Shown in pieces: positions 5,180 to 53,027 of a DNA stretch of 64,000 nucleotides. Source of the DNA: Gammaproteobacteria bacterium (GTDB taxonomy: Bacteria; Pseudomonadota; Gammaproteobacteria; Eutrophobiales; Eutrophobiaceae). The DNA lies in contig OZ220696.1 in assembly GCA_965116495.1 (NCBI GenBank), positions 2,848,001-2,912,000 on the forward strand, given 5' to 3'. A model generated the notes under the pieces. The model was not told the DNA's origin. It was given only the letters and a program-made list of their open reading frames with translations, and searched no databases. Each line of letters starts with the position of its first letter. Positions within the stretch are counted from its first letter, which is position 1. The position numbers were made by a program, and so were the translations under genes.

Positions 5180-6013
5180 ACGTGGGTGTCCAACATGGAA
5201 CAACCACCTGTAAGCGCCTGCGTCTTCCAGTTCTATGGTCAGCTCCACCGCGCGGGGAAGAGCTTCGTCGTTACCAGCGAGTCCCTGCGACTCGCGAGGC
5301 GTCCCCAGCGCGAAGGGAAGATCTTGCGTTCCTCCGATATTCGTCGATGGCGGCCAGCGCGCCAGCCATAAGCCGGCGTCCGCCAGGTAGCGCAGACGGA
5401 TATCCCCGATACCTTCCAGAAGCAGGTTGTCCCGGGACAGCATTCCATACGGCCGGTCGAGTCGCGCCCAGGTCCGGCGGTAAAGCCCGCCATCGTCAAG
5501 GCGGTAGCCGACGCGCAGGAACGGGCTGGCCGGCCCCGCGTGAAAATCGGCATTCACGCTCCGGGTAAACTCCAGCACGTTCTCATAAGCCGCGGAATTA
5601 CCATATTCATGACCGTTAAAGGGCTGGCCGGCGCCGCCCGGCGCCCGGTCCACAGCCTGTTCGAAGTCGGCATGAACCAGGTTGAAGACCGTCTCCAGCC
5701 GCTGCCAGAAACGTCTTTGCTCCTGCAACCGGTCCTGCACAACCAGCCCCTGGCTCAACGCCCCGTACGCGGCGGCGGCCACCAGTGAGAAAATCGCCAT
5801 GGCAACGACCAGTTCCAGCAGGGTCAATCCCGCGTAGCGACCCCTGGCTCGCGGGGACAGGCTTAAGCAGGCCCCCGCATGTTGTAAGCGCGGGTCCGTC
5901 CCCCGTAAGCAGGGTCCCCTTACAAGGAATGTGCGTTCACCGGACTCTGGTCCCCGCTTACGGCGTGCGGGGACAGGCCTGCACGGGAGCGGTACTACGG
6001 GCAACAGTGACAT
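5177..6013 (-). CDS. gspJ: T2SS minor pseudopilin GspJ (unusually long leader)
   Basis: G|LTLLELVVAMAIF, DFEQAVDR, LEFTR, LRVGYRL, WPP, LPRAVELTIE motifs; nearest in-frame ATG upstream of the cleavage site is 6013. Confidence 0.92.
   Translation of the reverse strand: MSLLPVVPLPCRPVPARRKRGPESGERTFLVRGPCLRGTDPRLQHAGACLSLSPRARGRYAGLTLLELVVAMAIFSLVAAAAYGALSQGLVVQDRLQEQRRFWQRLETVFNLVHADFEQAVDRAPGGAGQPFNGHEYGNSAAYENVLEFTRSVNADFHAGPASPFLRVGYRLDDGGLYRRTWARLDRPYGMLSRDNLLLEGIGDIRLRYLADAGLWLARWPPSTNIGGTQDLPFALGTPRESQGLAGNDEALPRAVELTIELEDAGAYRWLFHVGHPR
5853..5903. repeat. Composite GGGGACAG palindrome with nested 28-nt hairpin, in frame in the gspJ leader
   Basis: GGGGACAGGCTTAA[GCAGGCCCCCGCATGTTGTAAGCGCGGG]TCCGTCCCC; 44/52 identical to 52976-53027 by manual alignment. 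Confidence 0.85.
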
Positions 6014-6024
6014 GATTGCAACCC

Positions 6025-6071
6025 GAAAAAATAATCTGCGTTCATCTGCGTCATCTGCGGAAAAAAATAAT
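6025..6071. repeat. ATCTGCG triplet repeat flanked by GAAAAAATAAT-like direct repeats
   Basis: ATCTGCG-TTC-ATCTGCG-TC-ATCTGCGG at 6034-6060 between dnaA and gspJ. Confidence 0.6.
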
Positions 6072-6101
6072 ACCCCCGACTGATGTTCCACCAGGCTGAT
6101 G

Positions 6102-7418
6102 CTACATAGTCAGGATACTAAGCAGGTTCTTGTAGTCTTCCTCGACCCTGTTGTCATTTTGCCGTAATTCCGCGACCTTTCTGTGGGCATGCAATACAGT
6201 AGTGTGATCGCGTCCGCCGAACGCGTCTCCTATCTCGGGAAGGCTGTGGTTGGTCAATTCTTTCGCCAGGGCCATGGCTACCTGCCTGGGACGCGCAATG
6301 GACCGGCTTCTCCGTTTTGACAGCAGGTCCGCAACCTTGATTTTGTAATACCCGGCGATAACCTTCTGAATGTTCTCCAGGGTAACCTGGCGTTCCTGCA
6401 ACAGTAACAAATCCCGTAGCGCCAGCTGGCAGAATTCGATATCGATGGGCTGTCCGGTCAGGTTGGCGTTGGCGATGACCCGGTTCAGGGCGCCTTCCAG
6501 TTCGCGCACGTTCGAAATGAAGCGTTTGGCAATAAAAAAAGCCACGTTGTCCGGAAGATCAATTCCTGCGTTTTCCGCCTTGGACTTGACAATGGCAACA
6601 CGGGTCTCGTATTCCGGCGGTTCTATGGCAACGGTCAACCCGCTGCTGAAGCGCGACCTGAGCCGGTCCTCGATGCCGTCAACCTCCTTCGGGTAGCGGT
6701 CGCAGGTCAGGACCACCTGGTTTTCCCCTTCCAGCAGAGTATTGAACGTATAGAAAAACTCCTCCTGCGACCTGTCCTTACCGGCAAAAAACTGTATGTC
6801 ATCAATAAGCAACACATCCAGTGTGCGGTAATTTCGTTTGAACTCGTCAATGGTATTGTGGCGCAGCGCTTTCACCATGTCGGCAACAAACCGTTCCGAG
6901 TGCAGGTAGGCAACGTTCATGTTCGACCGGCCTTCAAGAATGGAGTTGCCTATGGCGTGCATCAAGTGGGTTTTGCCAAGGCCGACGCCACCACACATGA
7001 ATAAGGGATTGTACGCCGTACCGGGATTTTCCGCGACCTGTATGGCCGCAGCCCGGGCGAGTTGATTCGACTTTCCTTCCACGAATGAGGAAAACCGGTA
7101 ACTCCGGTTAAGGTTCTCCGGCAGATAATTGCGATTGAATACCGGTTCCTGTGTGCGCTGCCGCCGCCCTGCGCCCGTCTTCTGGCTGCCGACTTCAAGA
7201 GACAGGCTCAGCTTTGCGCCTTGTTCCTGTGAACGCAGTAATTCCTCGATGCGCTGCAGGTATTTTTCACTGACCCAATCCAGGACAAACCGGTTCGGTG
7301 CGAGCAATCGCACTCCGGCCTTGCCCTCTATGGCCTGCAACGGACGAATCCAGGTATTGAACTGTTCTGGAGGCAACTCTCCCGCAAGTCGTTCCAGGCA
7401 TGTTTTCCAGGCTGACAT
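6102..7418 (-). CDS. dnaA: Chromosomal replication initiator DnaA
   Basis: [18 protein letters not shown], Walker [38 protein letters not shown]. Confidence 0.99.
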
Positions 7419-7543
7419 CTCTATGAAACCCGCACCCTCATCGGAAAAAATACAAACAGAAATGGGCCGTCAAGTGTATACCTCTTGAACGGACTTATCC
7501 AATAGAAAATCCCCATATTTCCCGAATCCGTTCCTCACTTTCA

Positions 7544-7573
7544 TTGACAAGCAGGAGAACAAGAAAGTAGAAT
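7544..7573 (+). promoter_or_regulatory. sigma70-type promoter of the rpmH-rnpA-yidD-yidC operon
   Basis: TTGACA-N18-TAGAAT, 33 nt upstream of the rpmH ATG. Confidence 0.7.
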
Positions 7574-7606
7574 GCCCGCGATGATCGGAAATAATACAGA
7601 AGGCCA

Positions 7607-7741
7607 ATGAAACGTACATACCAGCCCAGCAATATCAAGCGAAAACGCCGTCACGGTTTTCGCGTTCGCATGCGCACCAAAGCCGGGCGGCAAATATTAA
7701 AATCGCGCAGGGCCAAAGGTAGGAAGCGCTTGTCGGCCTGA
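7607..7741 (+). CDS. rpmH: 50S ribosomal protein L34 (44 aa; below the ORF-track size cutoff)
   Basis: Manual translation [44 protein letters not shown]; divergent from dnaA. Confidence 0.98.
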
Positions 7742-7752
7742 CCCGTATATCC

Positions 7753-8112
7753 GTGTCACCTGAACGTCGCCGTTTCCAGCGAAAGAACAGACTGAACAGC
7801 GCAGCGGATTTCAACAACGTTTTTAAAACATCCTGTCGCTCCAGGGATTCGCAGTTTGTTATTCTGGCGCGCAGGAACGGCAGGCGCCATGCGCGGTTGG
7901 GACTGGCAATTTCCAGGAAGGCGGTAAAAACGGCTGTATTCAGAAACAGGGTAAAACGCACCATACGGGAAAGTTTCCGCAACCACGCAGAATTATTGTC
8001 AGGTCTTGACATAGTGGTCCTGGCGCAAAAGCAGGTAAAGTCACATGAAAGCAGGTTTATGAGCCAGTCTCTCAGAACACATTGGCAAAGGATTCTGCAA
8101 TGCGATCAGTAG
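7753..8112 (+). CDS. rnpA: Ribonuclease P protein component
   Basis: RLGLAISRK...[19 protein letters not shown] motif; synteny. Confidence 0.97.
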
Positions 8113-8297
8113 TACGTTTTTACCAACGCTTTGTCAGCCCTTTCCTGGGCGCGAACTGCCGGTTTTACCCGTCATGTTCCAGCTACGCCTGTGAAGCCAT
8201 GGAAAAACATGGTGTTCTGCGCGGTGCCTGGCTGAGCCTCAGGCGCCTGTGCCGCTGTCACCCGTTTCATCCGGGCGGTATCGACCCTGTTCCCTAG
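8100..8297 (+). CDS. yidD: Membrane protein insertion efficiency factor YidD
   Basis: [32 protein letters not shown]. Confidence 0.96.
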
Positions 8298-8328
8298 CCC
8301 GTATATGACACCAGGCCGATAGTCATTC

Positions 8329-9975
8329 ATGGACACCATACGATTTGTTCTCGTCCTGGCGTTGACGCTGGTATCCATCATGCTCTGGGAAGCATGGCAA
8401 CAGGACTATGGCGCCTCTGGCGCCGGCGCCGGCTCGCAGGAAACGACGCTGCCTGTCGAAGATCCTGGAATTCCACGGATAAAGTCCGATGACGCAACGA
8501 CGCCGGCCTACCCTGGTGACGAGGGGTCGGCGCTGACAGACGGCTCTTTGACCACGGTAGAGACGGACGTCCTGCGCCTGAAAATCGATCAGGGCGGGAC
8601 CATCGTGTTTGCCGAATTGCCGGATTACCCGGTTTCCCTGGATAAACCGGACCAGGCTTTCGTGCTGCTGGATAACTCTGCCGATCTGTACCATGTTATT
8701 CAGAGCGGCATTGTCGGCGAGCGTACACCCACCCACAGGGACGTGTTCTCACCGGGGCGTTCATCCTATACCCTCAACGAAGGCGACAACATCCTGGAAG
8801 TGCCGTTCACCTGGAAATCGGCAGACGGCGTAACAGTAACCAAGATTTTTGTTTTCGAACGCGGCTCTTACCGGATTCACCTCAAACACATCATTGAAAA
8901 CGGGTCGGACGCAGACTGGGAGGGCCGCCAATATACCCAGATAAAACGGGATGACCCGTCCAGGGAGGGCCGAAGACTGCTGTATACCTACACCGGTGCG
9001 GTGCTCTCCAGCCCCGATAACCGTTATGAGAAGATCAGCTTCGATGACATGGAAGACGCAGAGGCAGACGAGAATATCAGTAACGGCTGGGCAGCCATGA
9101 TACAGCATTATTTTTTAACGGCTATTCTCCCTGCCGACAAGGAGACCGTGTACCGTTACTATACCCGCGCGTTTTCTTCCCAGTATTATTCAATCGGTAA
9201 CGTCTCTCCGGCCCTGCAACTCCCCCCGGGCCAGCAGGGTGAACTGGACGACTATCTTTACGTGGGGCCCAAGCAGCAGTCCGAACTGGAACAACTGGCG
9301 GAAGGCCTGGAACTGACTGTTGATTACGGCTTTCTCTGGTTTCTGGCCAAACCGTTGTTCTGGTGCCTGGAGCGACTGCACGGGTTGACGGGCAACTGGG
9401 GCTGGTCAATCATCCTGGTGACGATCCTGCTCAAGCTCCTGTTCTACCACCTGTCGGCTACCGGCTATCGATCCATGGCGAACATGCGCCGGGTACAACC
9501 TCGCATCATGTCGATCCGCGATCGCTACAAGGACGATCGCGCCCGTTTGAACCAGGCGATGATGCAGATTTACAAGGAGGAGAAAATCAACCCGTTTGGC
9601 GGCTGCTTCCCGATACTGGTACAGATCCCGGTATTTCTCGCCCTGTACTGGGTATTGCTGGAAAGTGTCGAATTGAGACAGGCGGACTTTATCTTCTGGC
9701 TGAACGACCTGTCCAGCAAGGACCCTTTTTATGTTCTGCCGATCATCATGGGCGCGACCATGTTGATCCAGCAAAAGCTCAATCCCGCACCGATGGATCC
9801 CATGCAGGAGAAAGTGATGAAGGCCTTGCCTTTCATCTTCACGATATTCTTCGCTTTTTTTCCTTCCGGACTGGTACTGTACTGGGTTACCAACAATGTC
9901 CTGTCCATTGCCCAGCAGTGGCTTATCACGAGAAACCTGGAAAAGGAGGGTCTTTCAACTGCCAAGTCAAAGTAA
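8329..9975 (+). CDS. yidC: Membrane protein insertase YidC
   Basis: QHYF, YVGPK, VDYGFLWF, GNWGWSII, NPFGGCFPILVQIPVF. Confidence 0.98.
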   Translation: MDTIRFVLVLALTLVSIMLWEAWQQDYGASGAGAGSQETTLPVEDPGIPRIKSDDATTPAYPGDEGSALTDGSLTTVETDVLRLKIDQGGTIVFAELPDYPVSLDKPDQAFVLLDNSADLYHVIQSGIVGERTPTHRDVFSPGRSSYTLNEGDNILEVPFTWKSADGVTVTKIFVFERGSYRIHLKHIIENGSDADWEGRQYTQIKRDDPSREGRRLLYTYTGAVLSSPDNRYEKISFDDMEDAEADENISNGWAAMIQHYFLTAILPADKETVYRYYTRAFSSQYYSIGNVSPALQLPPGQQGELDDYLYVGPKQQSELEQLAEGLELTVDYGFLWFLAKPLFWCLERLHGLTGNWGWSIILVTILLKLLFYHLSATGYRSMANMRRVQPRIMSIRDRYKDDRARLNQAMMQIYKEEKINPFGGCFPILVQIPVFLALYWVLLESVELRQADFIFWLNDLSSKDPFYVLPIIMGATMLIQQKLNPAPMDPMQEKVMKALPFIFTIFFAFFPSGLVLYWVTNNVLSIAQQWLITRNLEKEGLSTAKSK

Positions 9976-9989
9976 TTGACAGGCTGCAC

Positions 9990-10099
9990 GTCATTCCAGC
10001 GAAGCATGTCGTAAGCGGGGAGCTGGAATCCAGTCAAATAATCTTCCTTGTTATAATAAGGGCAGTGTTTTCCTGGATTCCGGCATTCGCCGGAATGAC
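9990..10099. repeat. Convergent doublet of GTCATTCC-type palindromes; the first carries a 17-nt nested insert
   Basis: GTCATTCCAGCGAA[GCATGTCGTAAGCGGGG]AGCTGGAATCCAG and CTGGATTCCGGCATTCGCCGGAATGAC. Confidence 0.85.
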
Positions 10100-10117
10100 A
10101 GCCGACCCTGACCCACA

Positions 10118-11473
10118 GTGACAGAACATACAGATACCATCGCGGCAATCGCTACGCCGCCGGGACAGGGAGCGGTGGGTATCGTGAAAATATCCGGCCC
10201 TGACAGCGCCAGGATTATCACGACGGTGTGCCGGAATAAACCGGCTCATCGACAGTGCCGGTATACGGCGTTTTACGGCGATCAGGGACAGGTCCTGGAT
10301 CGCGGCCTGGCGCTGTTTTTCCAAGGCCCCGATTCCCACACCGGCGGGGACGTGGCCGAGTTGCACGGCCACGGCGGGCCGGTGGTCATGAACCTGTTGC
10401 TGCAACGCGTATTGTCGCTGGGCGCCCGCTATGCGCGCCCCGGCGAGTTCAGCGAACGCGCCTTCCTCAATAACAAGATTGACCTGCTGCAAGCTGAAGC
10501 CGTGGCGGACCTGATCAGCAGCGCCTCCGAACAAGCGGCGCTGAGCGCGGTACGCGCCATGGAGGGCGCATTTTCTTCACGCCTGGATGAACTGGCGCAG
10601 AAAGTAATCGAATTGCGCATGTTTATCGAAGCCACGCTGGACTTTCCCGAGGAAGAAGTCGATGGCCTGACGCAGGCAGAATTGAATGAGCGACTGGCGG
10701 ACTGCCGGCGCTGCCTGGACGAGATTTGCGCGCAGGCGGAAAGCGGCAGGTTGCTGGCAGAAGGCTTGAAAATAGCGCTGCTGGGCAAACCCAATGCGGG
10801 CAAATCCAGCCTGCTGAACCGGCTGGCCGAGGCTGAGCGCGCCATTGTCTCCCCCCGGCCCGGCACCACCCGGGATACTATTGAGCAGCGCATTTTGATC
10901 GACGGCATCCCGCTCAGCGTCATCGACACGGCCGGGATAAGAGAGGCCGGCAACCAGATTGAACGGGAAGGGGTCAGGCGCACCAGGGCGGCGGCGGCTG
11001 ATGCGGATATAGTGATCCTGATTGCCGATACCTGCCGCAACGATGTTGCGGATTTACGTGCGGTCGCCGCAGAGCTGGGACCTGGAAAAAACCTGTTGTA
11101 CGTCTTCAACAAGATCGACTTGTCGGGACATGCAGCCGGCAAGCCCGCGGTGCCGGCAGACCGGCGGGAGATTTACCTTTCCGCAAAAACCGGGGCTGGA
11201 GTGGACGCGCTGAAGAAGGAGATTAAAGACCTGGTTACCGGCGCGGACTATTCGGAAAACAGTTTCATCGCTCACACCCGCCATATCGACGTATTACACA
11301 AAGCCGCAACGCAACTCAGGGAAGCCACAGCACGATTCCACCAGCACCGCGCCACTGAACTGTTCGCCGATGATCTCACCCGCGTGCAGCAGACCTTGGG
11401 GGAGTTGACCGGCGAGCACACCCCGGATGACCTGCTCGGCGAGATCTTCTCCCGTTTTTGTATCGGCAAATAG
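10118..11473 (+). CDS. mnmE: tRNA modification GTPase MnmE
   Basis: DTIAAIATPPG, HGHGG, GKPNAGKSS, DTAG, NKID, C-terminal FCIGK. Confidence 0.98.
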   Translation: MTEHTDTIAAIATPPGQGAVGIVKISGPDSARIITTVCRNKPAHRQCRYTAFYGDQGQVLDRGLALFFQGPDSHTGGDVAELHGHGGPVVMNLLLQRVLSLGARYARPGEFSERAFLNNKIDLLQAEAVADLISSASEQAALSAVRAMEGAFSSRLDELAQKVIELRMFIEATLDFPEEEVDGLTQAELNERLADCRRCLDEICAQAESGRLLAEGLKIALLGKPNAGKSSLLNRLAEAERAIVSPRPGTTRDTIEQRILIDGIPLSVIDTAGIREAGNQIEREGVRRTRAAAADADIVILIADTCRNDVADLRAVAAELGPGKNLLYVFNKIDLSGHAAGKPAVPADRREIYLSAKTGAGVDALKKEIKDLVTGADYSENSFIAHTRHIDVLHKAATQLREATARFHQHRATELFADDLTRVQQTLGELTGEHTPDDLLGEIFSRFCIGK

Positions 11474-11583
11474 CCGGCAGGCTACTGCGAACAGGATCCA
11501 GTCCGCATCACCGCGGCGTGTTCCTGCCAATTATTATCCTGACAGTTAGAGGGACGGTTGCCTTGTTGAAAGGACTTACCGTG

Positions 11584-12416
11584 TTATGTATAGAATACAA
11601 AGTGGGCGTCCAGCATGTCGTCACCAGTCCCGCCTACCAGTAAGTCATCCCCACCGTCAGGACCGCCGTACAACACGTCATTGCCTTCCTTGCCATCCAG
11701 CGTATCATCACCGTGATAACCCCACAGCCAGTTTGCATCCTGGTTACCGACCAGCACGTCGTTATGGGCAGAGCCAAACACGTCTGAGATATCAAAAATT
11801 TCGATCTCCTGTCCTGCTTCCTCATTATCATCCCCCCCGAAAAACAAGTGATGGCAATCTTCTCAAAGTCGGAAACTTCGCAGTCCGATTGCCTGGGGCC
11901 ACCTTCGAGCCAGTCCCATCCTCTCCCGCCGTCGAGTTCGTCGTCACCGGCGCCACCGATGAGCCTGGTATGCAAATAATAGTCGCTCCTGTCAGTGCCG
12001 ACGAGGCTGAGGGGGTCAGCGTCAACGTCATACACCGCCAACTGGTAGCGGCCGGAATTGTCCTGGATCGGGTTACCCGTGAAGGCGCCGACGCTGAGGT
12101 AGTACGTGGCCGTGACCTCGGGTGAGAACATCAGCCTTGAATTAACCATCCCCGCGGCACAGTCCACGTCGTCATGAAAGCCCACCTGCTCCCCTGCCTG
12201 GTTGTAAATCCTGAGCACTGTATCCGTGTCCGCATCAGGCCCGATGCCGCGCAGTTTGATGTCATAGTTTCTCCCCTCCACCAGTTCCACCCTGGTCCTG
12301 TCTTCATCGGACTTGTCCGCCAGCACGCCTTCAAAGCCCTCGCCAACAGATATCATGTACGCGGTGTCAACAGATGCGGCTGCATCCTGAGTCTTATCTC
12401 CCACAGAATGTGTCAT
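11584..12416 (-). pseudogene. Frameshifted and truncated PPC-domain / RTX-type Ca2+-binding repeat protein
   Basis: Frame 1: PPC-like DTVLRIY...HDD...TYYLSVGAF...GRYQLAV then GGAGDDELDGGRGWDWLEGG; homology continues in another frame ([29 protein letters not shown]...GGTGDDMLD) and stops abruptly. Confidence 0.75.
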
Positions 12417-12502
12417 AACTTATCTCCTGTGACAAAAATTCACAGCATATAATAAGGTGCCTTATCAATATGACACTTTTTTTCGGTTCATGGGAGCTCC
12501 CG

Positions 12503-13450
12503 GTGATTAACAAGAGATGTAAATTCCTCTTCATCACGCTGAGCAATATTGGCGATGCGTTGTTGACGACCCCGGTATTGCAGTTTTTACACCGGTATGA
12601 TGAAACCGCGACCGTCGATATAGTCGGCGACGAGCGTTCGTCCATGCTGTTCCTTCACTGTCCTTACCGGGGTGAGATTTATCACAAGCAGAAACAACGG
12701 TTTTTACGCGGGACGCCGTCCCTGCTGCTCGAACTGCGCCGCAAGCGCTACGACCTGGTTGTCGATTTGCGCACGGACATCCTGGCGCGCTTGGTCAGGG
12801 CCGACAAAAGACTTGTGAAGACAGCCGGGGGCGGGCAGGCCCATGCGGTTGAACGGCATTTTGCCGCCATTTCACCAATAACCGGAGATCAGGAAATACT
12901 GTCTACCACCTTGTGGCCGGGACAGGCGGACCGGGATTATGCCGACGGGGTTTGTCGGCAACTGCCCGGCAACCGATGGCTGTGCATCGGCCCCGGCGCA
13001 AACTGGGAGAAGAAGATCTGGCCGGCGGCAAAATATGCGACGGCGGCAGACGAACTCCGCGGCGGGTTTGACGCGCTCGTTCTGCTGGGCAATAAGGCCG
13101 ATAATCGGCAGGCGGAACTCGTTGCCGAGCGCGCGGCGTTGCCATGCGTCAACCTCTGTGGCCGCACGACACTGCTGCAGGCCGCCGCCGTGCTGGCGCG
13201 GGTGACCCTGTTTCTCGGGAATGACTCCGGCCTCGGCCACATGGCCGCCGCCGTCGACACCCCTTCCTTCACCCTGTTCGGTCCCGGCAGCCCCGAACAT
13301 TACCGCCCCTGGGGACCTCGCGCCGCCTGGTATGCCGCTCCCGATCACAACATTGAAACCATCCCGGTCAACATCGTCGCGGAAAAACTTCACGCACACC
13401 TTGCGCACCTGTCCGGGACTGAAGCTGCTTATACGGTTTCTCCGGTTTGA
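12503..13450 (+). CDS. Glycosyltransferase family 9 (LPS heptosyltransferase-like)
   Basis: SNIGDALLTTP, GPGA..EKKIWP, GNDSGLGHMAAA, LFGP; GTG start after GGGAG. Confidence 0.9.
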   Translation: MINKRCKFLFITLSNIGDALLTTPVLQFLHRYDETATVDIVGDERSSMLFLHCPYRGEIYHKQKQRFLRGTPSLLLELRRKRYDLVVDLRTDILARLVRADKRLVKTAGGGQAHAVERHFAAISPITGDQEILSTTLWPGQADRDYADGVCRQLPGNRWLCIGPGANWEKKIWPAAKYATAADELRGGFDALVLLGNKADNRQAELVAERAALPCVNLCGRTTLLQAAAVLARVTLFLGNDSGLGHMAAAVDTPSFTLFGPGSPEHYRPWGPRAAWYAAPDHNIETIPVNIVAEKLHAHLAHLSGTEAAYTVSPV

Positions 13451-13469
13451 TGTTAGAATTGCGGTTTGA

Positions 13470-13511
13470 GGAACCTCTGATAGGTCCTGGACAGACTTGA
13501 TCAGGGCTTCC
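13470..13511. mobile_element. Minimal IS5-family-like element (two imperfect TIRs, 7-bp spacer)
   Basis: GGAACCTCTGATAGGTC-N7-GACTTGATCAGGGCTTCC followed by TTAA. Confidence 0.55.
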
Positions 13512-13561
13512 TTAAATTTTCGGAAAGCGTATAAATAATCAAATGTTGAAGGAGACATCAC

Positions 13562-14706: not shown

Positions 14707-14712
14707 CCCGGA

Positions 14713-17458: not shown

Positions 17459-17475
17459 ATGGTCCGGGACTTTAC

Positions 17476-22805: not shown

Positions 22806-22833
22806 CTGGATTCCCGCATGCGCGGGAATGACG
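22806..22833. repeat. GTCATTCC-type palindrome
   Basis: CTGGATTCCCGCATGCGCGGGAATGACG, 1 mismatch to 3813-3840. Confidence 0.85.
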
Positions 22834-31389: not shown

Positions 31390-31443
31390 GGGGACAGGTT
31401 TAAATCTGTCTTCGACTGGATTCCTGCTTCCGCAGGAATGACG
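31390..31443. repeat. Adjacent GGGGACAG-type and GTCATTCC-type palindromes
   Basis: GGGGACAGGTTTAAATCTGTC (31390-31410) and CTGGATTCCTGCTTCCGCAGGAATGACG (31416-31443). Confidence 0.8.
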
Positions 31444-40315: not shown

Positions 40316-40333
40316 TAGCAACTGACACAACTG

Positions 40334-40999: not shown

Positions 41000-41047
41000 T
41001 TGTGAAAATCAATGGGGAATAATGGGGACAGACCCATTGATTCTTGA

Positions 41048-42064: not shown

Positions 42065-42075
42065 CGTTTATCGGC

Positions 42076-42627: not shown

Positions 42628-42688
42628 GGTGGTTCTCCGGTTTCCAGGTCAAAGGATAGCATTCATTGGAAAATAAGTTGATTCATAT

Positions 42689-43993: not shown

Positions 43994-43997
43994 GTCA

Positions 43998-44882
43998 TCA
44001 GTCCTCGGGTTTGAATATGAAATTGAATTTCCTGAGCCGCAGACGCTCGAATGTCGCCGGGTCCGCGGGCAGCGGCAACGGGGATGCCTTCTCGACCGCG
44101 GTGACGGCCCTCCGGTCGAATACTTCGTTGCCGCTTGATTTATTTACGGCCACGCTGATTACCTCACCGCCAGGCACAGTCTGTACCGATAATACGCATT
44201 CCAATCCTCTGGACAGGCCGGTTTTATTAAAATTGCCGGCGACCATCTGATATATCTCCGCAACAATATTCTGCAGGGTTATTTTATCCTGTGCCCGCTG
44301 TTCCTGTGCAAGCTGTTTACGCCGTGCCTCCTCGGCTGCTTTCTTTTTCTTTTCCTCTTCTTTCCTTTGCCGTTCGGCCTCAGCCTTGCGCTTCTCCGCT
44401 TCAATGCGTTCCTGCTCCATTCTCGCCCTGCGGTTCTCTTCCTCGATGCGTTTCAATTCCGCTTCTGCCCTGACCTTTTCCTGTTTGATACGTTCGCGCT
44501 CCGTCGCGGTCCTGCGTTCCTCCTCCTTGCGCTTTCGTTCCGCTTCGGACTTCCGTTTTTCCTCTTCCTTGCGTTTTCGCTCGGCTGCCAGTTTCCTTTT
44601 CTCTTCCTCTTTACGTTTTTTCTCCACCGCACTGGCCTGCTGTTCAAGGTCTTCCAGCTTTTTCTCCATGGCACGCTGTTTTTCCAGTTCCTGCTCCCTG
44701 AGCCGCTGCAACTCTTCTTCAACGGCTTTCTCATCCACAGTGACCGCCTCGACTATGTTTTCCTGGGGCCGCGGTTTGAATACCGGCTGCCGCTCGGCAT
44801 CGAAATTAACGACCAGCGCCGTGATAACGACCACATGCAGTGCCAGTGAATAGACAAACGCTCTCAGGGTCAGAAAAGGCAT
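43998..44882 (-). CDS. tolA: TolA
   Basis: S.ALH TM motif, K/E/R-rich coiled coil, SSGN..FDR.A..AV.KASPLP. Confidence 0.92.
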   Translation of the reverse strand: MPFLTLRAFVYSLALHVVVITALVVNFDAERQPVFKPRPQENIVEAVTVDEKAVEEELQRLREQELEKQRAMEKKLEDLEQQASAVEKKRKEEEKRKLAAERKRKEEEKRKSEAERKRKEEERRTATERERIKQEKVRAEAELKRIEEENRRARMEQERIEAEKRKAEAERQRKEEEKKKKAAEEARRKQLAQEQRAQDKITLQNIVAEIYQMVAGNFNKTGLSRGLECVLSVQTVPGGEVISVAVNKSSGNEVFDRRAVTAVEKASPLPLPADPATFERLRLRKFNFIFKPED

Positions 44883-44888
44883 GGCGCA

Positions 44889-45311
44889 TCACCGTTCCGG
44901 CGGCTCAGTGATCAAGCCGATACCTTTCACTCCGGCGCCCTGCAGCAGGGCCATGGCCTGCACGACCCGTCCGTAGTTGACGCCGGCGTCCCCTTTTACC
45001 AGCACCGGAAGTTTGGGGCGATACTTGACCAGTGCGCCAACCCGGTTGACCAGTACTTCAGGAGAAACCGGCTGGTCCGGGTCCTCCCCGTAGTTGATAA
45101 AAAAATTCCCTGCCGCATCCACACTGACGATCACAGGGTCGTTATCAGTAGCCGGCAGTGGTTCAGAAGGCACCTGCGGCAGGTCGATTTTTACTCCCTG
45201 GCTGAGCAGCGGCGCGGTAATCATGAATATGATCAACAATACCAGCATGACGTCGATATAGGGAACGACGTTAATCTCCGACATGGGGCGCTTTCGGTTC
45301 CGGTGTCGCAT
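44889..45311 (-). CDS. tolR: TolR
   Basis: EINVVPYIDVMLVLLIIFMITAP. Confidence 0.96.
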   Translation of the reverse strand: MRHRNRKRPMSEINVVPYIDVMLVLLIIFMITAPLLSQGVKIDLPQVPSEPLPATDNDPVIVSVDAAGNFFINYGEDPDQPVSPEVLVNRVGALVKYRPKLPVLVKGDAGVNYGRVVQAMALLQGAGVKGIGLITEPPER

Positions 45312-45321
45312 GGGGGCGGCC

Positions 45322-45996
45322 TCAGCCGTGTGCCTGCCGGTGCAGGATGGCAGAAAATTCTTCGATGAACGTATCGTAGCGATTGATCAGCCGTTCCACG
45401 TCGTTGGAAAACCGATTATAGGCAATCACCGCGGGGATGGCGGCAAACAACCCCATCGCCGTGGCAACGAGGGCCTCCGCAATGCCTGGCGCGACCATTG
45501 AAATGGACGCCTGCTGGACGTTCCCCAATGCGCGGAAGCTGTTCATGATACCCCATACCGTACCGAACAAGCCGACATACGGGCTGGTGGAACCCACCGT
45601 GGCAAGGAACGACAGGTGTACCTCCAGTTCCTCAAGCTCCCTGTTAAACGCCACGCGCATGGCCCGTTGCGATCCCTCCATGACTGCCTCAGCCTCGACG
45701 CTGCCCTGCTTCTGCAAACGGACGAATTCCCTGAACCCGGCCTCAAACAGGAGTTCCATGCCGCTTGCCTCGTTACGTTGTTTGTTGATCCGGTTATACA
45801 GGGGCGTCAACTCTTCCAGTGACCAGAAGCGTTCCTCGAACAAATCGGCTTCATGCTTGGCGCGGTTCAGCCAGATGCGCTTCTTGAATATCATCGTCCA
45901 GGACATGACGGAAGCAACAACCAGCATAATCATGACCGCCTGTACCGGTATACTGGCATTGGTGATCAAGTGAAAAAATGACATGTCAGGAGTCAT
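45322..45996 (-). CDS. tolQ: TolQ
   Basis: LATVGSTSPYVGLFGTVWGIM, VAPGIAEALVATA. Confidence 0.97.
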   Translation of the reverse strand: MTPDMSFFHLITNASIPVQAVMIMLVVASVMSWTMIFKKRIWLNRAKHEADLFEERFWSLEELTPLYNRINKQRNEASGMELLFEAGFREFVRLQKQGSVEAEAVMEGSQRAMRVAFNRELEELEVHLSFLATVGSTSPYVGLFGTVWGIMNSFRALGNVQQASISMVAPGIAEALVATAMGLFAAIPAVIAYNRFSNDVERLINRYDTFIEEFSAILHRQAHG

Positions 45997-46390
45997 GGGC
46001 AAAATCCGCAAGTAGTGAAGTTGGCATGCGTTTTGGTTTGTAACGGTCGGCGCTGAGGCAGGCGATAGCGATATCGGCCTCACACAGTTGTTCCTCATCC
46101 CGGCAGATAGTCTGGTGAAACACCAGGCTGGCGCGGGAGGTTTTGCCGGGTGCTGCCGTCACTGTCAATTCATCGTCAAACACGGCAGGTCTCCTGAAGT
46201 TGATGTCAATCCGGTTGACGACGAACAAGATACCCTGCTCAGCGCGTAATTGTGTCTGGTTATAGCCCACGGCGCGCAGGTATTCAGTCCTTGCGCGCTC
46301 CATGTACTTCAGGTAGCTGGTGTGGTAAACAATGCCGCCAGCATCGGTATCTTCATAATATACGCGTACAAGCCACTTGAATTCTTTCAT
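45986..46390 (-). CDS. ybgC: Tol-Pal-associated acyl-CoA thioesterase
   Basis: RVYYEDTDAGGIVYH..YL..MERARTE. Confidence 0.95.
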   Translation of the reverse strand: MKEFKWLVRVYYEDTDAGGIVYHTSYLKYMERARTEYLRAVGYNQTQLRAEQGILFVVNRIDINFRRPAVFDDELTVTAAPGKTSRASLVFHQTICRDEEQLCEADIAIACLSADRYKPKRMPTSLLADFAHDS

Positions 46391-46423
46391 CTCAAGAGAT
46401 CCGGTTGTTTTTTTCCGGCAAGG

Positions 46424-47476
46424 TTATCCGTCCGCGCCGGATTGATCAAATAAATCCGTCTCCAGTGCGTGCTGTTTCGGCATAGGCAGGCCGAAGTATG
46501 CCCAGGCCTGTTTCGTCGCCACCCGGCCCCGGGCAGTGCGCATCATGAAACCCTGCTGAATCAGGTACGGTTCGATTACGTCTTCTATCGTGTCTTTTAC
46601 TTCGCCCAGCGCCGCGGCAATACTGTCAATCCCTACGGGGCCGCCGTCAAATTTCTGCATGATGGCAAGCAGCAATTTGCGGTCCATCATATCGAACCCG
46701 GAACCGTCCACGTTCAGCATGTCCAATGCGCGGGAGGCGGTGGCTTCACTGATGTTGCCGTCCCCCTTGACCTCGCTGTAGTCACGCACGCGACGCAGCA
46801 ACCGGTTGGCGATGCGCGGGGTGCCGCGGGCGCGGGCGGCGATCTCGCGGGCGCCGGCAGCAGCAATCGGCACTTCCAGGATATTCGCCGAACGCATGAC
46901 TATATCGGCCAGGTCCGCGCTGGAATAAAACTCCAGACGTTGCACGATGCCGAACCGGTCCCGCAGCGGTGAAGTCAGCAGGCCGGCCCGGGTCGTGGCG
47001 CCGACCAGGGTAAACTGGGGGACATCCAGCTTGATGGCCCGCGCCGCGGGTCCTTCACCGATCATGATGTCGATCTGGTAATCCTCCATTGCCGGGTACA
47101 GGATCTCTTCCACTACCGGGCTCAGCCGATGTATCTCATCGATGAACAACACATCCCTGGGTTCCAGGTTGGTCAGCAAGGCAGCCAGGTCGCCGGGGCG
47201 TTCCAGTACCGGGCCCGAGGTTTGTCTCAGGTTCACCCCCATTTCATTGGCGATAATATGCGCCAGGGTCGTTTTGCCGAGGCCGGGCGGGCCGAAAATC
47301 AGGACGTGGTCCAGTGCCTCGGATCGTTGCCTGGCGGCACTGACGAAAATTTCCATCTGCTCCTGCACGACAGGCTGGCCCCGGTAATCATTCAGGGAGC
47401 GCGGCCTCAGGGTGTTTTCCATCGCCGCCTCATCCGCCGAACTGCGGGCGGAGATAACCGGATTGGGTTCGCTCAT
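46424..47476 (-). CDS. ruvB: Holliday junction helicase RuvB
   Basis: [41 protein letters not shown]. Confidence 0.99.
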
Positions 47477-47494
47477 ATCAGTCCGCCGGTCCTG

Positions 47495-48097
47495 TTACGC
47501 CAGTGCAGCCTTCAAGGCGGCGCGGATCAGGTCTTCGCTGTCCATGTCATCAGCAGCCGCGCCGTGTACGAGGCGGCTGGCCTCCTGGGGCCTGTAGCCC
47601 AGGGATATCAGGGCGTTTATTGCCTCGTTGACCGGTTCTGCACTCCCGGCATGCGGCGCAGAGCTGTCCGGCCCGGCCTGGTTTCCAACCTGCAAGCCAT
47701 CCAGACGGTCGCGCATCTCAACGATGAGACGCTGGGCCGTTTTTGTCCCTACACCCGGCACGCGGGTAAGACGCGTGGTATCGCCCGTTTCTATGCAGTG
47801 CCTGAATTCCAGCGAACTGATTCCCGACAATATGCCCAGCGCCATTTTTGCGCCGACCCCGTTAACCCGGATCAACGCGCGAAATACGTAGCGCTCATCC
47901 TCACTACCGAAACCGTACAGCGTGTGGGCATCTTCACGCACCACCAGGTGGGTCAGGAGTTCGACTTCCTCCCCCGCGCCCGGCAACTGGTAGAAGGTGT
48001 TCATGGACGCCTCCAGTTCGTAGCCCACGCCGTGTACGTCCAGGGTCAATCCCGGCGCTTGTTTTTTTACTATCCTGCCGCGCAAAAAACCGATCAC
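47495..48097 (-). CDS. ruvA: RuvA
   Basis: GVGYE, VREDA..LYGF, VPGVG.KTAQR. Confidence 0.98.
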   Translation of the reverse strand: MIGFLRGRIVKKQAPGLTLDVHGVGYELEASMNTFYQLPGAGEEVELLTHLVVREDAHTLYGFGSEDERYVFRALIRVNGVGAKMALGILSGISSLEFRHCIETGDTTRLTRVPGVGTKTAQRLIVEMRDRLDGLQVGNQAGPDSSAPHAGSAEPVNEAINALISLGYRPQEASRLVHGAAADDMDSEDLIRAALKAALA

Positions 48098-48651
48098 GGG
48101 GCGTGTCCCTTACGTATCCCGCAAATTTCCTTCCGGCGCAGCAATCCCTCGCGCGAATGGCCGTGGCACAAGGCAACCCCAAGGGCGTCCGCGGCATCCG
48201 CCTGGGGCACGCCGGCCAGGCACAACAACACCTTGATCATGTATTGTACCTGTGACTTTTGCGCATGGCCCTTGCCGACAACGGCCTGTTTTACCTGGTT
48301 TGCAGTATATTCAAACACTGCCAGGTCCCGCTCTGCACAAGCGGTCACGGCGGCTCCCTTGGATTGCCCAAGTTTCAATGCGGAATCGGCGTTGCGGTAC
48401 ATGAATACTTTTTCCACGGCGCATTCATCCGGCCGGTACTCGCTGATCACTGCACTCAGCCCGCGGAAAATCTGGCGCAGTTTATCGGACAACTGCGCGC
48501 CCTGGGTCGTAATGTGGCCGTGGGCGACATGGACCGCGCGGTTGCCGTCCATATCGATCACACCGTAACCCGTATGCTGGGACCCCGGGTCAATCCCGAG
48601 AATTCGAATGCCCCGCTTGCGACCTGCGTCGTTGTTATCCGGATTAGTCAC
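48094..48651 (-). CDS. ruvC: RuvC
   Basis: ILGIDPGS, AVE.VF, KLGQ, DAADAL..A.CH. Confidence 0.97.
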   Translation of the reverse strand: MTNPDNNDAGRKRGIRILGIDPGSQHTGYGVIDMDGNRAVHVAHGHITTQGAQLSDKLRQIFRGLSAVISEYRPDECAVEKVFMYRNADSALKLGQSKGAAVTACAERDLAVFEYTANQVKQAVVGKGHAQKSQVQYMIKVLLCLAGVPQADAADALGVALCHGHSREGLLRRKEICGIRKGHAP

Positions 48652-48701
48652 GATCGATGATCGGTTTCCTACGCTCGATGGTTCGTTTTCCGCTCACGGC
48701 A

Positions 48702-49448
48702 TTAATCGAGTTGCGCCAGGATTTCATCGGGGATCTCCGCATTGGAATACACCTTTTGCACATCGTTCAGGTCTTCCAGGGTATCCAGCAGGCGTATCAT
48801 GGTCTGTGCACCCTGCAGGTCCAGCGTATTACCGGTTGCGGCTCGCATCGTAACCTCCGCCACTTCGGGCGGGTAGCCGGCTCCAACCAACCCGCCTTTT
48901 ACATCGAGGAAGTCGTCCGGCGTCGTTAATACGTCAATGGAACCGTCATCATTGCCGGCAACGTCGTCGGCGCCGGTTTCCAGCGCGGCTTCCAGCAACG
49001 CGTCCTCGTTGGTCCCGGGCGGGTAGGAGAGCAGGCCGATCTTGGAAAACAGGTACGCGACCGAACCGTCGGTTCCCAGGTTGCCGCCGCACTTGGCAAA
49101 CACATGACGCACCTCCGCAACGGTGCGGTTGCGGTTGTCGGTCATGCAGTCGACCATTACGGCAACGCCGCCCGGGCCGTAACCTTCGTAACGTACTTCC
49201 TCCAGGCTGTCGCCCTCAGCGCCGCCCGCGCCACGCTTTACAGCCCGTTCAATGGTGTCCTTGGGCATGTTGCCCGCCAGGGCATTGTCTATGGCTGCGC
49301 GCAGTCTGGGGTTCCCGTCTGGATCGCCGCCGCCGAGTCTGGCCGACACCGTGATTTCGCGGATCAGTTTGCTGAATAATTTACCCCGTTTTGCATCCTG
49401 GCGTCCCTTGCGGTGCTGGATGTTTGCCCACTTGCTGTGTCCGGCCAT
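48702..49448 (-). CDS. yebC: YebC/PmpR family regulator
   Basis: [25 protein letters not shown]. Confidence 0.97.
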
Positions 49449-49578
49449 GCCTCTTTATCCTGTATTCTGTTCCCTGAAATTTTACCACTTGCTTTGTACA
49501 CAACAAAGTTAATCCTCAGGTGATACAAACCAGCGCAGCTAAATATAGTGAAAATACGTTGAATTCTTTCCTGACCTG

Positions 49579-50652
49579 TCAGGCGTCACTGTTTCCGTAA
49601 ATAACCTGTTTACGTTGCGCAGCAAAATTCAGCAGGCGCCCGATGGGGATGCAGGCGCGTTCGATGATGTTCTCATCGACAACAATCTCATTAGCGCCCG
49701 ATCTGAGCGTTGCCAGCAGTTTTGTCAGGCTGTTCATGGCCATCCACGGGCAATGTCCGCAGCTTTTACAGGTGGCGCCCCGGCCGGCCGTAGGCGCCTC
49801 GATGAACGTCTTATCCGGGGCGGCCTGCTGCATCTTGTAAAATATACCCCGATCGGTCGCTACGATGAACGTATCCGAATCCAACTCCCTGGACGCGTTG
49901 ATTATCCCCGTGGTGGAGCTGACCACGTCGGCCTGCGCAATAACCGGGGCCGGCGACTCCGGGTGTACCAGTACCTTGGCGCGGGGGTGTTGCAGCTTCA
50001 ATTCCGCCAGTTCCCGGCCCTTGAATTCCTCATGGACGATGCAACTGCCCTGCCACAATACCATGTCGGCCCCGGATTGAGCCTGAACGTATTCACCCAG
50101 GTACTTGTCCGGCGCCCAGATGATTTTCTCCCCTTTCTCCGCCAGGTGTCTGACCACGTCCACCGCGCTGCCGGAGGTGACCATCCAGTCGGCGCGGGCC
50201 TTGACCGCGGCGCTGGTGTTGGCATAGACCACGACAGTGTGGTCGGGATAGGAATCACAAAAAGCGCTGAACGCATCAATGGGGCAACCCAGGTCCAGGG
50301 AACAATCCGCGTGCAGGTCCGGCACCAGTACCCGCTTTTCCGGGTTCAGGATCTTCGCGGTTTCGCCCATGAAGCGCACACCGCAAACGACCAGGGTATC
50401 CGCATCGGCTTCGTGGCCGAAGCGCGCCATGTCCAGAGAATCGGATACATGGCCGCCGGTTTCATCTGCCAGCAACTGCAAATCCGGATCGGTGTAGTAA
50501 TGGGCAACCAGCACGGCATTCCGTTCCGCCAGCAACCGTTTAATCTGCTGAATGCACTCGTCCCGTTCATCCCGGCTGAGTGTTTCAACCAGAGTTTCCG
50601 GCACCTGCTCAGGCGGTAATCGATAATCCTGGGTAGTGATGACAGTATGCAT
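49579..50652 (-). CDS. nadA: Quinolinate synthase
   Basis: [36 protein letters not shown]. Confidence 0.97.
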
Positions 50653-50768
50653 ATCCTCGGAACCTCGGCCCCCTGGTGGCAGCGCGTCATGCAGCAGTCA
50701 TGACGCAATCGAAGGCGAGTGTGTTAATAACAGTAAAATCCTAGTGCATCAATTACCTTTAATCAAGA

Positions 50769-50897
50769 CAATTTGGGACAGCCATAAATTTGGATTTTAT
50801 GGGTGTCCTGAATTGCCCCTTTCGGGGTCAGAGTAAAAATGTGAGACACGTTGTCACGTGGTTCTGGTACATTGCCGACAATTTTTACTCTGACCCC
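50769..50897. repeat. Two GGG(A/T)CAG-family palindromes in tandem
   Basis: Imperfect hairpin 50769-50815 (17/20 arm match); perfect 17-bp arms GGGGTCAGAGTAAAAAT at 50824-50840 and 50881-50897. Confidence 0.85.
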
Positions 50898-52924
50898 AAA
50901 TTTCCCATGCCGCAATCGTTGGCCAGAAAATCCAGCAACGTCCGGTAGAACTCCAGATAGTGCCGGTAGCCCAGGGTGTCAACGGTGTGCGCGGCATCCA
51001 CCAGCTTCAGGTATTTATAGGGCTTGCCCCGTTTATCCAGTTCCCGGGCGAACAGGTCGCTGTGCTTGATGGGAACGATCAGGTCGCGGTCGCCGTGCAC
51101 CAGTAATACGGGCACGTTGACGGCATCCATGTTGCGCAGTGGCGATAACCCGCCGCGCCATTTCTGGATAACGTCCCGGAACCGGTAATGCCATGTATCC
51201 TTCTCAATCAAGTCCATGCTGCTCACCCCGGCTCCCGCGATCGCGCAACGGTAGATATTGGGATTGCGCATCGATCCCACCATCGCCGAATAGCCACCGT
51301 AACTCCAGCCGAAGATGGCCATCCTGTCCGGATCGGCAATGCCCTGTTCCACCAGGTAGCGCATGCCGTCATCCACGTCGTCCTGCATCTTGTAGCCCCA
51401 CTGTTTGTTGCCGGCGCTGTAATAGTCGAATCCGAAGCCCGTGGAACCGCGGAAGTTGGGCTGCAGCACGGCGTAACCGCGGGTCGCCAGCAATTGCGGC
51501 CACTCGTCCCAGAAGGATGAGTTCCAGTACAGCGAATCGCGGCTGCGCGGACCGCCGTGGGGATGTGCAACGGCCGGATACGGCGGCTCGCCGGTAGTGG
51601 GAAGCGTCAGCACCGCGTTGATCTTCATACCGTCGCGGGCCTCGTACCAGATGGATTTGCGTTCGCCCAGTTGTTCCGGTTCGATGGCGGATGCCTTGCC
51701 CAGGAGTTGGATACGGGATTTGTCCCACAGCAGGTAATAACGGCCCGGCTCCTTCGGCCCCATGGAATGGACGATGATGTATTTGTCCTGCGCCGCCCGG
51801 TCATGGATCCTGTTGAAGTTGCCCGGCGGCAGGGCCGCGTCGATGGACTGTTGCAGTGCCGCGGCGGACTCGTCGATATAATGAATGGTGTATGAGTCGC
51901 CCACGTACGAGAATCCCACCAGTTGCGGATCCTCATCACCGTCCACGCACTCCTGCGAGATACAGGCCCTGACAATGTCCCTGGCATCATAGCGGTTGAT
52001 CGCGAACAACAGTTCGGGGTCGGTCTGCGGGCGCTCCATATCGAACAGGTAAATACCTTCCGTGTCGCGATCTTTTGCCCACAATACATACGCCTGGTTG
52101 TAGTCCGGTGGTTCGAAGCCCAGTATTTCCACGTAACGGTCCTCGTCCACGTCCCAGGTCAACCAGTCGGTCCAAGCACTCCAGTCGCCGTCTTTTCCAG
52201 TCCGGATTTGCATGGTGATGGTGTTGTCGTGACGGTTGGCGCGGCTGCGCACTCGTGCGTTCCCGTCCTTGTCGAACTCGTAGCCGAAATAGTTTGCCGA
52301 GAACTTGAAGACCGGTTGCGGCTGACCGTTGTTGACGTTCACCTTGAACACCTCGGTGCCGCTCTCCTCGGAATTCAACCACTCGATCAACACCCATTCA
52401 TCCTCTGCGGGAAGGCGCGAAACCACCCTCGGGCTGAACAGGCGCTGCACATAGGTCTCGAATGCGAAGCGGGTGATGTTATTCTTGCTGGGCAGTTCCA
52501 CCCAGCGCCCACCGTCAACTCCCACGGAGAGCAGTTTCCAGGCATAGGTCTTTACCTTGCCGGCCGCGCCGATCCCCGCCCGATTGTAACCGATGCGCCG
52601 TCCCGGCACCTCCACCGGCTGGCGCGTGCGGATCAACAGGCGTTCGTCATTGGCCCAGTTCACCCCGACGATGTCCATGTGTTCCGCGCCCAGAGTGTAC
52701 GGCTCCTTATCCAGGCGCGCGGTCTCATAGATGTCCACCACGTAATTCTGTCTCGGGCCGGGCAGGCGCATGATCGCTAGGTGATCGCCGGAAGGGGACA
52801 GGTCAACGTCGCGCAGCAGGGGCCGCATGGCAAACTCTTCCAGAGTCGGCGGCTCGAGCGCGGCGCCGGTGGCCGCATAAAGTAGCAACGTCAGAACAAC
52901 AGAGGAGGCAACCCCGCGCATCAT
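50885..52924 (-). CDS. Exported S9 family (prolyl oligopeptidase / acylaminoacyl peptidase-like) serine peptidase
   Basis: Signal peptide; PHGGP, QPNFRGSTGFG, nucleophile GWSYGGY, HGDRD..VP, AAH triad. Confidence 0.92.
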   Translation of the reverse strand: MMRGVASSVVLTLLLYAATGAALEPPTLEEFAMRPLLRDVDLSPSGDHLAIMRLPGPRQNYVVDIYETARLDKEPYTLGAEHMDIVGVNWANDERLLIRTRQPVEVPGRRIGYNRAGIGAAGKVKTYAWKLLSVGVDGGRWVELPSKNNITRFAFETYVQRLFSPRVVSRLPAEDEWVLIEWLNSEESGTEVFKVNVNNGQPQPVFKFSANYFGYEFDKDGNARVRSRANRHDNTITMQIRTGKDGDWSAWTDWLTWDVDEDRYVEILGFEPPDYNQAYVLWAKDRDTEGIYLFDMERPQTDPELLFAINRYDARDIVRACISQECVDGDEDPQLVGFSYVGDSYTIHYIDESAAALQQSIDAALPPGNFNRIHDRAAQDKYIIVHSMGPKEPGRYYLLWDKSRIQLLGKASAIEPEQLGERKSIWYEARDGMKINAVLTLPTTGEPPYPAVAHPHGGPRSRDSLYWNSSFWDEWPQLLATRGYAVLQPNFRGSTGFGFDYYSAGNKQWGYKMQDDVDDGMRYLVEQGIADPDRMAIFGWSYGGYSAMVGSMRNPNIYRCAIAGAGVSSMDLIEKDTWHYRFRDVIQKWRGGLSPLRNMDAVNVPVLLVHGDRDLIVPIKHSDLFARELDKRGKPYKYLKLVDAAHTVDTLGYRHYLEFYRTLLDFLANDCGMGNLGSE

Positions 52925-52975
52925 CACGCCTGACAACCGTAACCCTACATCTTCAGAACAGCGTTGGAGGTGAGA

Positions 52976-53027
52976 GGGGACAGATTTCAAGCATGCCCCC
53001 GCATGTTGTAGGCGGGGGCCTGTCCCC
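52976..53027. repeat. Composite GGGGACAG palindrome with nested 28-nt hairpin
   Basis: GGGGACAGATTTCAA[GCATGCCCCCGCATGTTGTAGGCGGGGG]CCTGTCCCC. Confidence 0.85.

Follow-up and report, generated by a model that had tools for sequence, protein, structure and literature searches.

A 27-nt hairpin unit inserted base-exactly into several repeat families of a gammaproteobacterial genome

The stretch of DNA analysed here (the window, 64,000 nucleotides) belongs to contig OZ220696.1 of a gammaproteobacterium of the family Eutrophobiaceae (GCA_965116495.1, positions 2,848,001 to 2,912,000) and lies close to dnaA; the study genome (G000) is a single contig of 4.34 Mb. The window carries copies of a short hairpin-forming insert, the 27-mer, which interrupt palindromic repeats of the GGGGACAG family and of the CGTC type (Table 1). 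A sequence-only reading had placed three copies, each following AA, at the centre of such palindromes, and all three are present as it described them. The copy at 10004, which it took for a shortened form lacking the segment between two GCATG repeats, has 18 nt and fits a deletion of 10 nt. The 17-mer pattern of this copy has 5 matches in the window at up to two mismatches where 0.01 are expected, far better than chance, one of the five, at 48611, being probably a chance match. Its last base, A10021, would pair with the first stem base in the T...A form of the unit, and a full-length T...A form is found in the same host type in G016 (L104). The uninterrupted hosts listed in that reading are intact at 4857, 22806 and 31416, whereas the right arm of the one at 31390 is degenerate.

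Table 1. Insert copies, their hosts, uninterrupted hosts and gspJ in the window.
Feature	Position	Strand	Remarks
Insert: junction G + 27-nt unit (4-nt leader, 7-bp stem, 9-nt loop)	52991..53018	+	At this site only in the study lineage
GGGGACAG-family host palindrome (GGGGWSAS TIRtron-type motif)	52976..53027	+	Between TonB-dependent receptor gene and peptidase-like gene
Degenerate insert copy	5867..5894	+	Common to G005, G015, G016
GGGGACAG-family host of the 5867 copy	5853..5903	+	
Fourth insert copy, T...A closing pair	5951..5978	-	Not in the sequence-only reading; no AA at junction
Degenerate CGTC-type host of the 5951 copy	about 5942-5995		
18-nt deletion derivative of the insert	10004..10021	+	10 nt likely lost between two GCATG repeats
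CGTC/NTS-type host hairpin of the 10004 copy	9989..10033	+	Left half of inverted doublet between yidC and mnmE
Uninterrupted CGTC hairpin	10073..10099	-	Partner in the 10004 doublet
Uninterrupted GGGGACAG-family host	4857..4881	+	
Uninterrupted GGGGACAG-family host, degenerate right arm	31390..31413	+	
Uninterrupted CGTC host	22806..22833	-	
Uninterrupted CGTC host	31416..31443	-	
gspJ	5177..6013	-	Start codon inferred; nearest in-frame ATG upstream of the 5867 and 5951 copies

A position weight matrix (PWM) seeded with the 52991 copy gave 58 matches in the genome, 55 of them at 22 bits or more, and no match at 18 bits in any of three shuffled genomes. Nine additional copies are interrupted by a 24-nt sister insert. 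From its 5' end the unit comprises the junction base, a leader of 4 nt with the sequence C-(A/C/T)-T-G, a stem of 7 bp and a loop of 9 nt, and the right flank directly abuts the stem foot, flush. Across the 50 distinct copies in the genome, Watson-Crick bases make up 311 of 350 stem pairs, versus a maximum of 289 in column shuffles, and a compensatory change is evident at pair 10-24, which occurs as TA, CG and GC. The 27-mer is a discrete unit with fixed ends and a conserved fold. A chance origin of the copies is ruled out by the shuffle controls and the window expectation, and an assembly artefact by the diversity of the copies, their compensatory changes and their presence in 20 of 22 other genomes of the genus (numbered here with the prefix G) and in public contigs.

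Comparison with related genomes shows the insert present and absent at the same site. Of 20 aligned orthologs, those of G008, G016 and G021 have an empty site at 52991, the remaining orthologs having no host there, and a 386-nt contig of the public run X6 lacks exactly 27 nt at 52992. Clean pairs were available at 52991, 2813668, 1650532 and 3403517 and at 7 of the 64 sites of relatives with an ortholog (87 examined); the other relative sites were filled in both genomes, had no host or were poorly aligned. All 11 clean loci show a net gain of 27 nt and no target duplication. Three of them have G at the junction in the filled and the empty allele alike, and the other eight have A or C in the empty allele; at these eight informative loci the filled allele has G at six and keeps the original base at two (one A, one C). 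In nine of ten GGGGACAG-family pairs the two alleles do not differ in the host loop to the left of the junction, and the left end of the unit therefore lies at the junction base.

Three further loci are empty but have the loop inverted. Loops and whole inserts are often inverted between orthologs (L066, L119, L120, L024, L506-L508), which points to template switching, or recombination of one arm with the other, as a frequent event. Single units, not doublets, differ between orthologs. One site carries the 27-mer in G018 and a 23-nt sister insert in the study genome, and at about 824,400 the study genome has a 24-mer within the loop of the 27-mer where G012 and G002 have the 27-mer alone. The copy at 3669655 adds nine codons (in-frame, +27) relative to a paralog and two homologs, and the open reading frame (ORF) now stops early. 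This short ORF (G000 3,669,607-3,669,870, paralog at 3,652,500) ends after 45 codons in the insert-bearing copy, the frame continuing beyond the stop. From X1 and X5, available as contigs only, no empty allele is listed, which is uninformative on excision within one population. On an evolutionary time scale the 27-mer is mobile, likely among the smallest mobile DNA elements, and it is more promiscuous than a unit restricted to loops.

The base at the junction follows a rule. In GGGGACAG hosts of the study genome and its relatives in which A is expected at the junction, filled copies have G in 43 cases and A in 11, while all 13 filled copies in hosts with an expected G have G. Empty GGGGACAG hosts carry a mismatched junction G once versus 83 matched, and hosts with T at the junction make up 52 oriented empty sites and none of the 67 filled copies. 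A metagenome scan yielded at least 120 stretches with at least 107 distinct sites, collapsed to 50 context classes. Among the matches listed, the junction base is G in 77, A in 26, C in 3 and T in 1 of 107 sites, and G in 38, A in 10, C in 1 and T in 1 of the context classes, that is a purine in 48 of 50, with A at -1 in 32. Sequence matters at the target: a purine is preferred immediately 5' of the insert, and the junction base is either kept or replaced by G.

In order to describe the hosts we assigned the 55 genome copies by family motif, as loop and arm labels from minimum free energy (MFE) folds separate insertion sites poorly from random G positions (folds of -6 kcal or lower at 0.60 of sites versus 0.38). 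Twenty-one copies are in GGGGACAG hairpins and about 14 in CGTC hairpins, at the loop, the 5' loop edge or the foot of the 3' arm; 4 are in the arm of a small internal hairpin within CGTC doublets, 3 in CGCAGAT repeats and 13 elsewhere, among them copies lying within another copy and within an ORF. Nesting reaches three levels. GGGGACAG agrees with the GGGGWSAS motif described for TIRtron ends (PMC3733652), and the CGTC host is a repeat of the NTS/SRM type belonging to Ssn nucleases (PMC11893778). Metagenomic hosts among the matches listed include several heptamer arrays and one pilin leader, entered in frame (L363).

The sequence-only reading had the unit residing in unrelated repeat families, which holds genome-wide and at orthologous empty sites, several host families being involved and not one. 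Its other two expectations of the target did not hold. AA precedes 29 of the 55 genome copies and 10 of the 34 outside the GGGGACAG family, which rules out a universal AA junction. Targeting of loops by structure rather than sequence is at variance with the purine rule and with the folding of emptied metagenomic context classes, of which 15 of 49 among the matches listed fold at -6 kcal/mol or lower; loops are frequent among the targets, but strict loop targeting is ruled out by copies in hairpin arms, heptamer arrays and coding DNA.

The 27-mer is accompanied by sister inserts of 22-24 nt which in the study genome have the same leader and 7-bp stem with loops of 4-10 nt. A strict scan gave 77 matches, versus 9-16 in shuffles, and the junction position, which the scan left unconstrained, is G in 61 of them. 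The stems of the sister inserts resemble the SRM core. At G000 1,349,236, 1,477,469/1,477,490 and 80,913 sister inserts sit inside each other or in the stem of a copy of opposite orientation.

Outside the study genome, the 27-mer pattern is found at 0-88 copies per genome in the genus, in one of two other members of the family and in one of 16 other members of the class. A GTDB scan, in which only the CGTC host and the first eight insert bases were fixed, returned at least 123 stretches with at least 133 inserts and at least 91 distinct sequences. Among the matches listed, the insert lengths form clusters at 23, 24, 25 and 28 nt; Watson-Crick pairing holds for 582 of 637 unconstrained stem pairs versus a shuffle maximum of 476, a sliding partner giving about 45%. 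The same plan, a 5-nt leader including the junction base and a 7-bp stem, occurs in about 14 phyla by record title (80 matches listed). In viral stretches the 22-nt sister is present in 67, mostly outside hosts recognisable by eye, and the 27-mer in one.

The reading which we favour, and whose chances we judge to be about even, is that the 27-mer is a non-autonomous mini-element of the small dispersed repeat (SDR) type, added base-exactly and without duplication 3' of a purine, and copied in at single-strand nicks by an enzyme acting in trans. The target would be nicked 3' of a purine, and the free 3' end would prime on a donor copy through one to three paired bases (AA-G in most donors), be extended through leader and hairpin to the stem foot, and the new strand would finally be connected with the right flank. 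If mismatched, the primer end could be either proofread to G or extended unchanged, giving the mixed junction. Hairpins like those of repetitive extragenic palindromic (REP) sequences may be favoured for exposing single-stranded DNA, being nicked by their own nucleases and tolerating insertions, and some filled composites probably spread also within their host family by conversion. Cleavage by HUH enzymes leaves a 3'-OH able to prime synthesis (PMC8266576). More tentatively, and with the balance somewhat against it, the units of 22-27 nt may be one pan-bacterial superfamily, defined by the 5-nt leader and 7-bp stem, which parasitises itself and the repeats belonging to three or more unrelated nuclease systems (TIRYT/RAYT, Ssn GIY-YIG and GxxExxY). 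Its movement would be a so far undescribed nick-primed copy-in that leaves a single G as its signature, and the enzyme behind it would be widespread and without a known connection to mobile DNA.

Copying at nicks is supported by the 11 clean loci with their junction bases and unchanged host loops, the junction rule in GGGGACAG hosts and metagenomes, the compensatory stem changes, the shared plan across phyla, the site with alternative inserts and the in-frame insertion. It is supported too by leader base 3, which among the matches listed co-varies with flank base -2 (T or A with A, 18 versus 1; C, 6 versus 28; Fisher 3e-8), as expected from priming on flank microhomology. Several points weigh against it. 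The Fisher value overstates the association, the context classes and the genus genomes being not fully independent. Microhomology priming alone leaves the constant position of the right end, at the stem foot, without an explanation. Filled and empty pairs are scarce (7 clean empty alleles in 64 orthologous loci) because most orthologous loci are without the host hairpin entirely, and parsimony makes gain rather than loss clear only at 52991, 3396991 and the interrupted ORF. Conversion acts as well, as mosaic arms in two of the nine triple nests show. Finally, no enzyme was identified as mobiliser, and the neighbouring ORFs listed for 127 metagenomic and 115 viral flanks include no recurring family of nucleases, transposases or reverse transcriptases, only one GIY-YIG and one IS110 protein. 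The GIY-YIG gene (L373:1148-1450, 101 aa), the sole nuclease of its type among the 127 metagenomic neighbours listed, is separated by 120 nt from an insert whose host belongs to a different hairpin family.

Two candidate systems are present in the study genome: an intact RAYT-like gene, located between GGGGACAG/TIRtron-type repeats and flanked by GGGGTCAG inverted repeats, and an Ssn-like GIY-YIG gene of 96 aa flanked by CGTC hairpins. An IS200-type Y1 transposase gene with two internal stops is also found (L001, G000 2,244,784-2,245,140). The 27-mer is beside none of 24 Y1 loci, nor is it at the Ssn locus. No gene flanked by the element was found, the inverted pair 2783186/2784499 bracketing an ordinary ORF of 393 aa. 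Y1 matches occur in 15 and Ssn matches in 5 of 23 genus genomes, and neither tracks the copy number of the 27-mer cleanly: G002 (14 copies, 94% complete) and G012 (23 copies, 83% complete) have no Y1 match and G001 (51 copies) has no Ssn match, though the two copy-richest genomes, G018 and G003, have both RAYT and Ssn.

These data bear on the alternative that an HUH/Y1 transposase, of the RAYT/TIRYT or IS200 type, cuts the unit out as a single-stranded circle, which it then inserts into hairpin DNA on the 3' side of a purine, the leader serving as guide and A-to-G changes arising later by conversion from filled copies. We regard this as unlikely, while it survives better than the other alternatives. 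It would account for the absence of target duplication, the single-strand fold and the leader-flank co-variation; the 4-nt leader at the hairpin foot resembles the guide tetranucleotides of IS200/IS605 and REP elements (PMC8266576), and an intact RAYT-like gene between inverted repeats is present in the genome. Strand transfer, however, retains the target base, yet that base is turned to G in six of the eight informative pairs, which plain peel-and-paste of the IS200/IS605 kind does not predict. These base-replacing pairs retain the recipient's own loop, including a loop variant found once in the genome. Against it are also the presence of one hairpin only and the Y1 distribution given above; the copies show no clear replichore bias (38 of 64, p=0.17; 11 of 20 for the sisters), and TnpA-REP is described as cleaving between C and T or C and A, not 3' of a purine (PMC8266576). 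The link to HUH or RAYT enzymes which the sequence-only reading had put forward is not borne out, nor is the co-occurrence with RAYT genes that it proposed as a check; the A-to-G junctions are unexpected under simple peel-and-paste.

It is less probable still, and in our judgement improbable, that no dedicated enzyme is involved and that the insert, as a swappable loop module of the hairpin repeats, is copied from site to site when polymerases switch templates or repeats undergo gene conversion. Loop inversions and swaps of host variants at orthologous sites speak for such exchanges, as do the mosaic arms and the nine identical junctions of the triple nests and the likeness of insert stems to CGTC hairpin cores. 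Yet exact identical ends are found in unrelated hosts, unique DNA, coding sequence and phages, the 7-bp stem and 5-nt leader are fixed across the phyla listed, and conversion via the long host arms should bring the donor's loop, which it did not in nine of ten pairs. Least probable of all, and very doubtful, is reverse transcription of an RNA copy of the 28-mer at a target nick, with the junction G as the first RNA base or a non-templated addition, which would account for both fixed ends, the lack of duplication and the keep-or-G junction, and agrees with an excess of G.T pairs over A.C mismatches on the given strand across phyla (29 versus 11 among the matches listed), but this wobble bias is absent in the study genome (13 versus 12) and comes mostly from one pair, copies between co-oriented genes show no transcription bias (sense 7 versus 12), no reverse transcriptase is among the neighbouring ORFs listed (no genome-wide search for one was made), and no Rfam model matched the element at six loci with E up to 1.

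Turning to the surroundings of the window copies, the CGTC doublet around 10004 is absent in 21 of 21 aligned orthologs, so that no empty allele of this host was found in them; G018 has its own filled GGGGACAG-type host at the equivalent spot. The 5867 and 5951 copies, common to G005, G015 or G016, lie in a block whose identity is unusually high. At about 2,823,500-2,854,000 of the genome (to about 5,950 of the window) the region for type II secretion is 92-97% identical to G015/G005, the neighbouring DNA about 75-82%, which suggests recent transfer or recombination of the type II secretion block adjoining dnaA. Within gspJ the two copies would, with the start codon as inferred, be translated as part of a lengthened prepilin leader; at window 5840-6013 repeat insertions would give a leader of about 60 residues versus about 5-13 in distant orthologs. 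Prepilin leaders are cleaved off, and the long leader is for that reason probably neutral. Between gspK and gspJ (window 4912-5179) a non-coding element of 268 nt with perfect 34-nt terminal inverted repeats, similar in appearance to a miniature inverted-repeat transposable element (MITE), has many copies of 83-100% identity in the study genome and the genus. A further CGTC doublet with tandem partial repeats (window 3690-3870) is precisely absent or shortened in contigs of X5 and X6.

How bacterial repeats of less than 30 nt originate and spread has been a question since the work on SDRs and REPs. The genus studied here supplies filled and empty alleles resolved to the base, a site occupied by alternative inserts and nests three levels deep, and with them rules that any mechanism must satisfy, namely the purine target, the replacement by G, the fixed ends and the co-variation of leader and flank. 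The elements introduce loops of nine residues into proteins and interrupt the hairpins which RAYT- and Ssn-type systems recognise. What is added is the exact allele set and the junction rule, while the kind of element itself has precedent. Our literature search, which did not extend to most subscription journals and bioRxiv supplements or to the files accompanying Di Nocera 2013 (alignments) and Chenal 2025 (supplements), found no account of the plan outside cyanobacteria or across phyla, nor of the junction rule.

Among known elements, a MITE mobilised by a DDE transposase does not fit, as the inverted repeat is offset by the 4-nt leader and there is no target-site duplication. Non-autonomous derivatives of IS200/IS605 share with the 27-mer the absence of duplication, the hairpin and insertion 3' of a preferred base, but have two separate end hairpins in place of one; for the 27-mer the target base is often replaced and no clear strand bias is seen. 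The Ssn GIY-YIG system with its NTS/SRM hairpins (Chenal 2025, PMC11893778) is related to the CGTC host, which is NTS-type, and an Ssn-like gene is present in the study genome; SsnA, however, is described as cutting a few bases upstream of its repeat and not in the loop (PMC11893778), and Ssn matches are restricted to the few genus genomes given above. The GTAG and CGTC REPs, REPINs and TIRtrons (Di Nocera 2013, PMC3733652; Bertels and Rainey 2011, PMC3116915) are likewise short hairpins with a non-pairing 5' tag and in-frame intragenic copies, and REPs have been reported inside other palindromes in T. roseum (GTAG-23), A. variabilis (GTAG-15) and H. neapolitanus (CGTC-1) (PMC3733652). The 27-mer differs in its leader G-C-(A/C/T)-T-G, which is neither the GTAG nor the CGTC tag, in moving as a single hairpin and not as an inverted doublet, and in having no cognate nuclease gene found between its copies. 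As described there, REP families each have one target type, whereas for the 27-mer the REP and terminal inverted repeat families are the hosts.

The closest precedent is given by the cyanobacterial SDRs, contrary to the suggestion of the sequence-only reading that no named element behaves in this way. SDR4, SDR5 and SDR6 of Nostoc and its relatives are reportedly dispersed repeats of 21-27 nt (Elhai and colleagues, 2008) which are said to share a stem-loop with compensatory changes and to nest in heptamer arrays and in themselves; the 27-mer, with its uniform gain at the 11 clean loci, and its 22-24-nt sisters are of similar size and likewise preserve a stem-loop by compensatory changes. In the sources available a size of about 20 nt is given (PMC4390886, PMC13756078, PMC5861425, PMC2884548, PMC3116915), and SDR5 (21 nt) enters the HIP1 palindrome directly after the third base, which places it 3' of a G (PMC4390886, PMC13756078), a precise insertion into another repeat without duplication as seen for the 27-mer. 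SDRs are described there from Nostocaceae only (PMC5861425), and SDR5 from a single octamer, whereas the plan of the 27-mer extends from a gammaproteobacterial genus to about 14 phyla among the matches listed and to phages, and many target families are used. In its behaviour the 27-mer works like an SDR.

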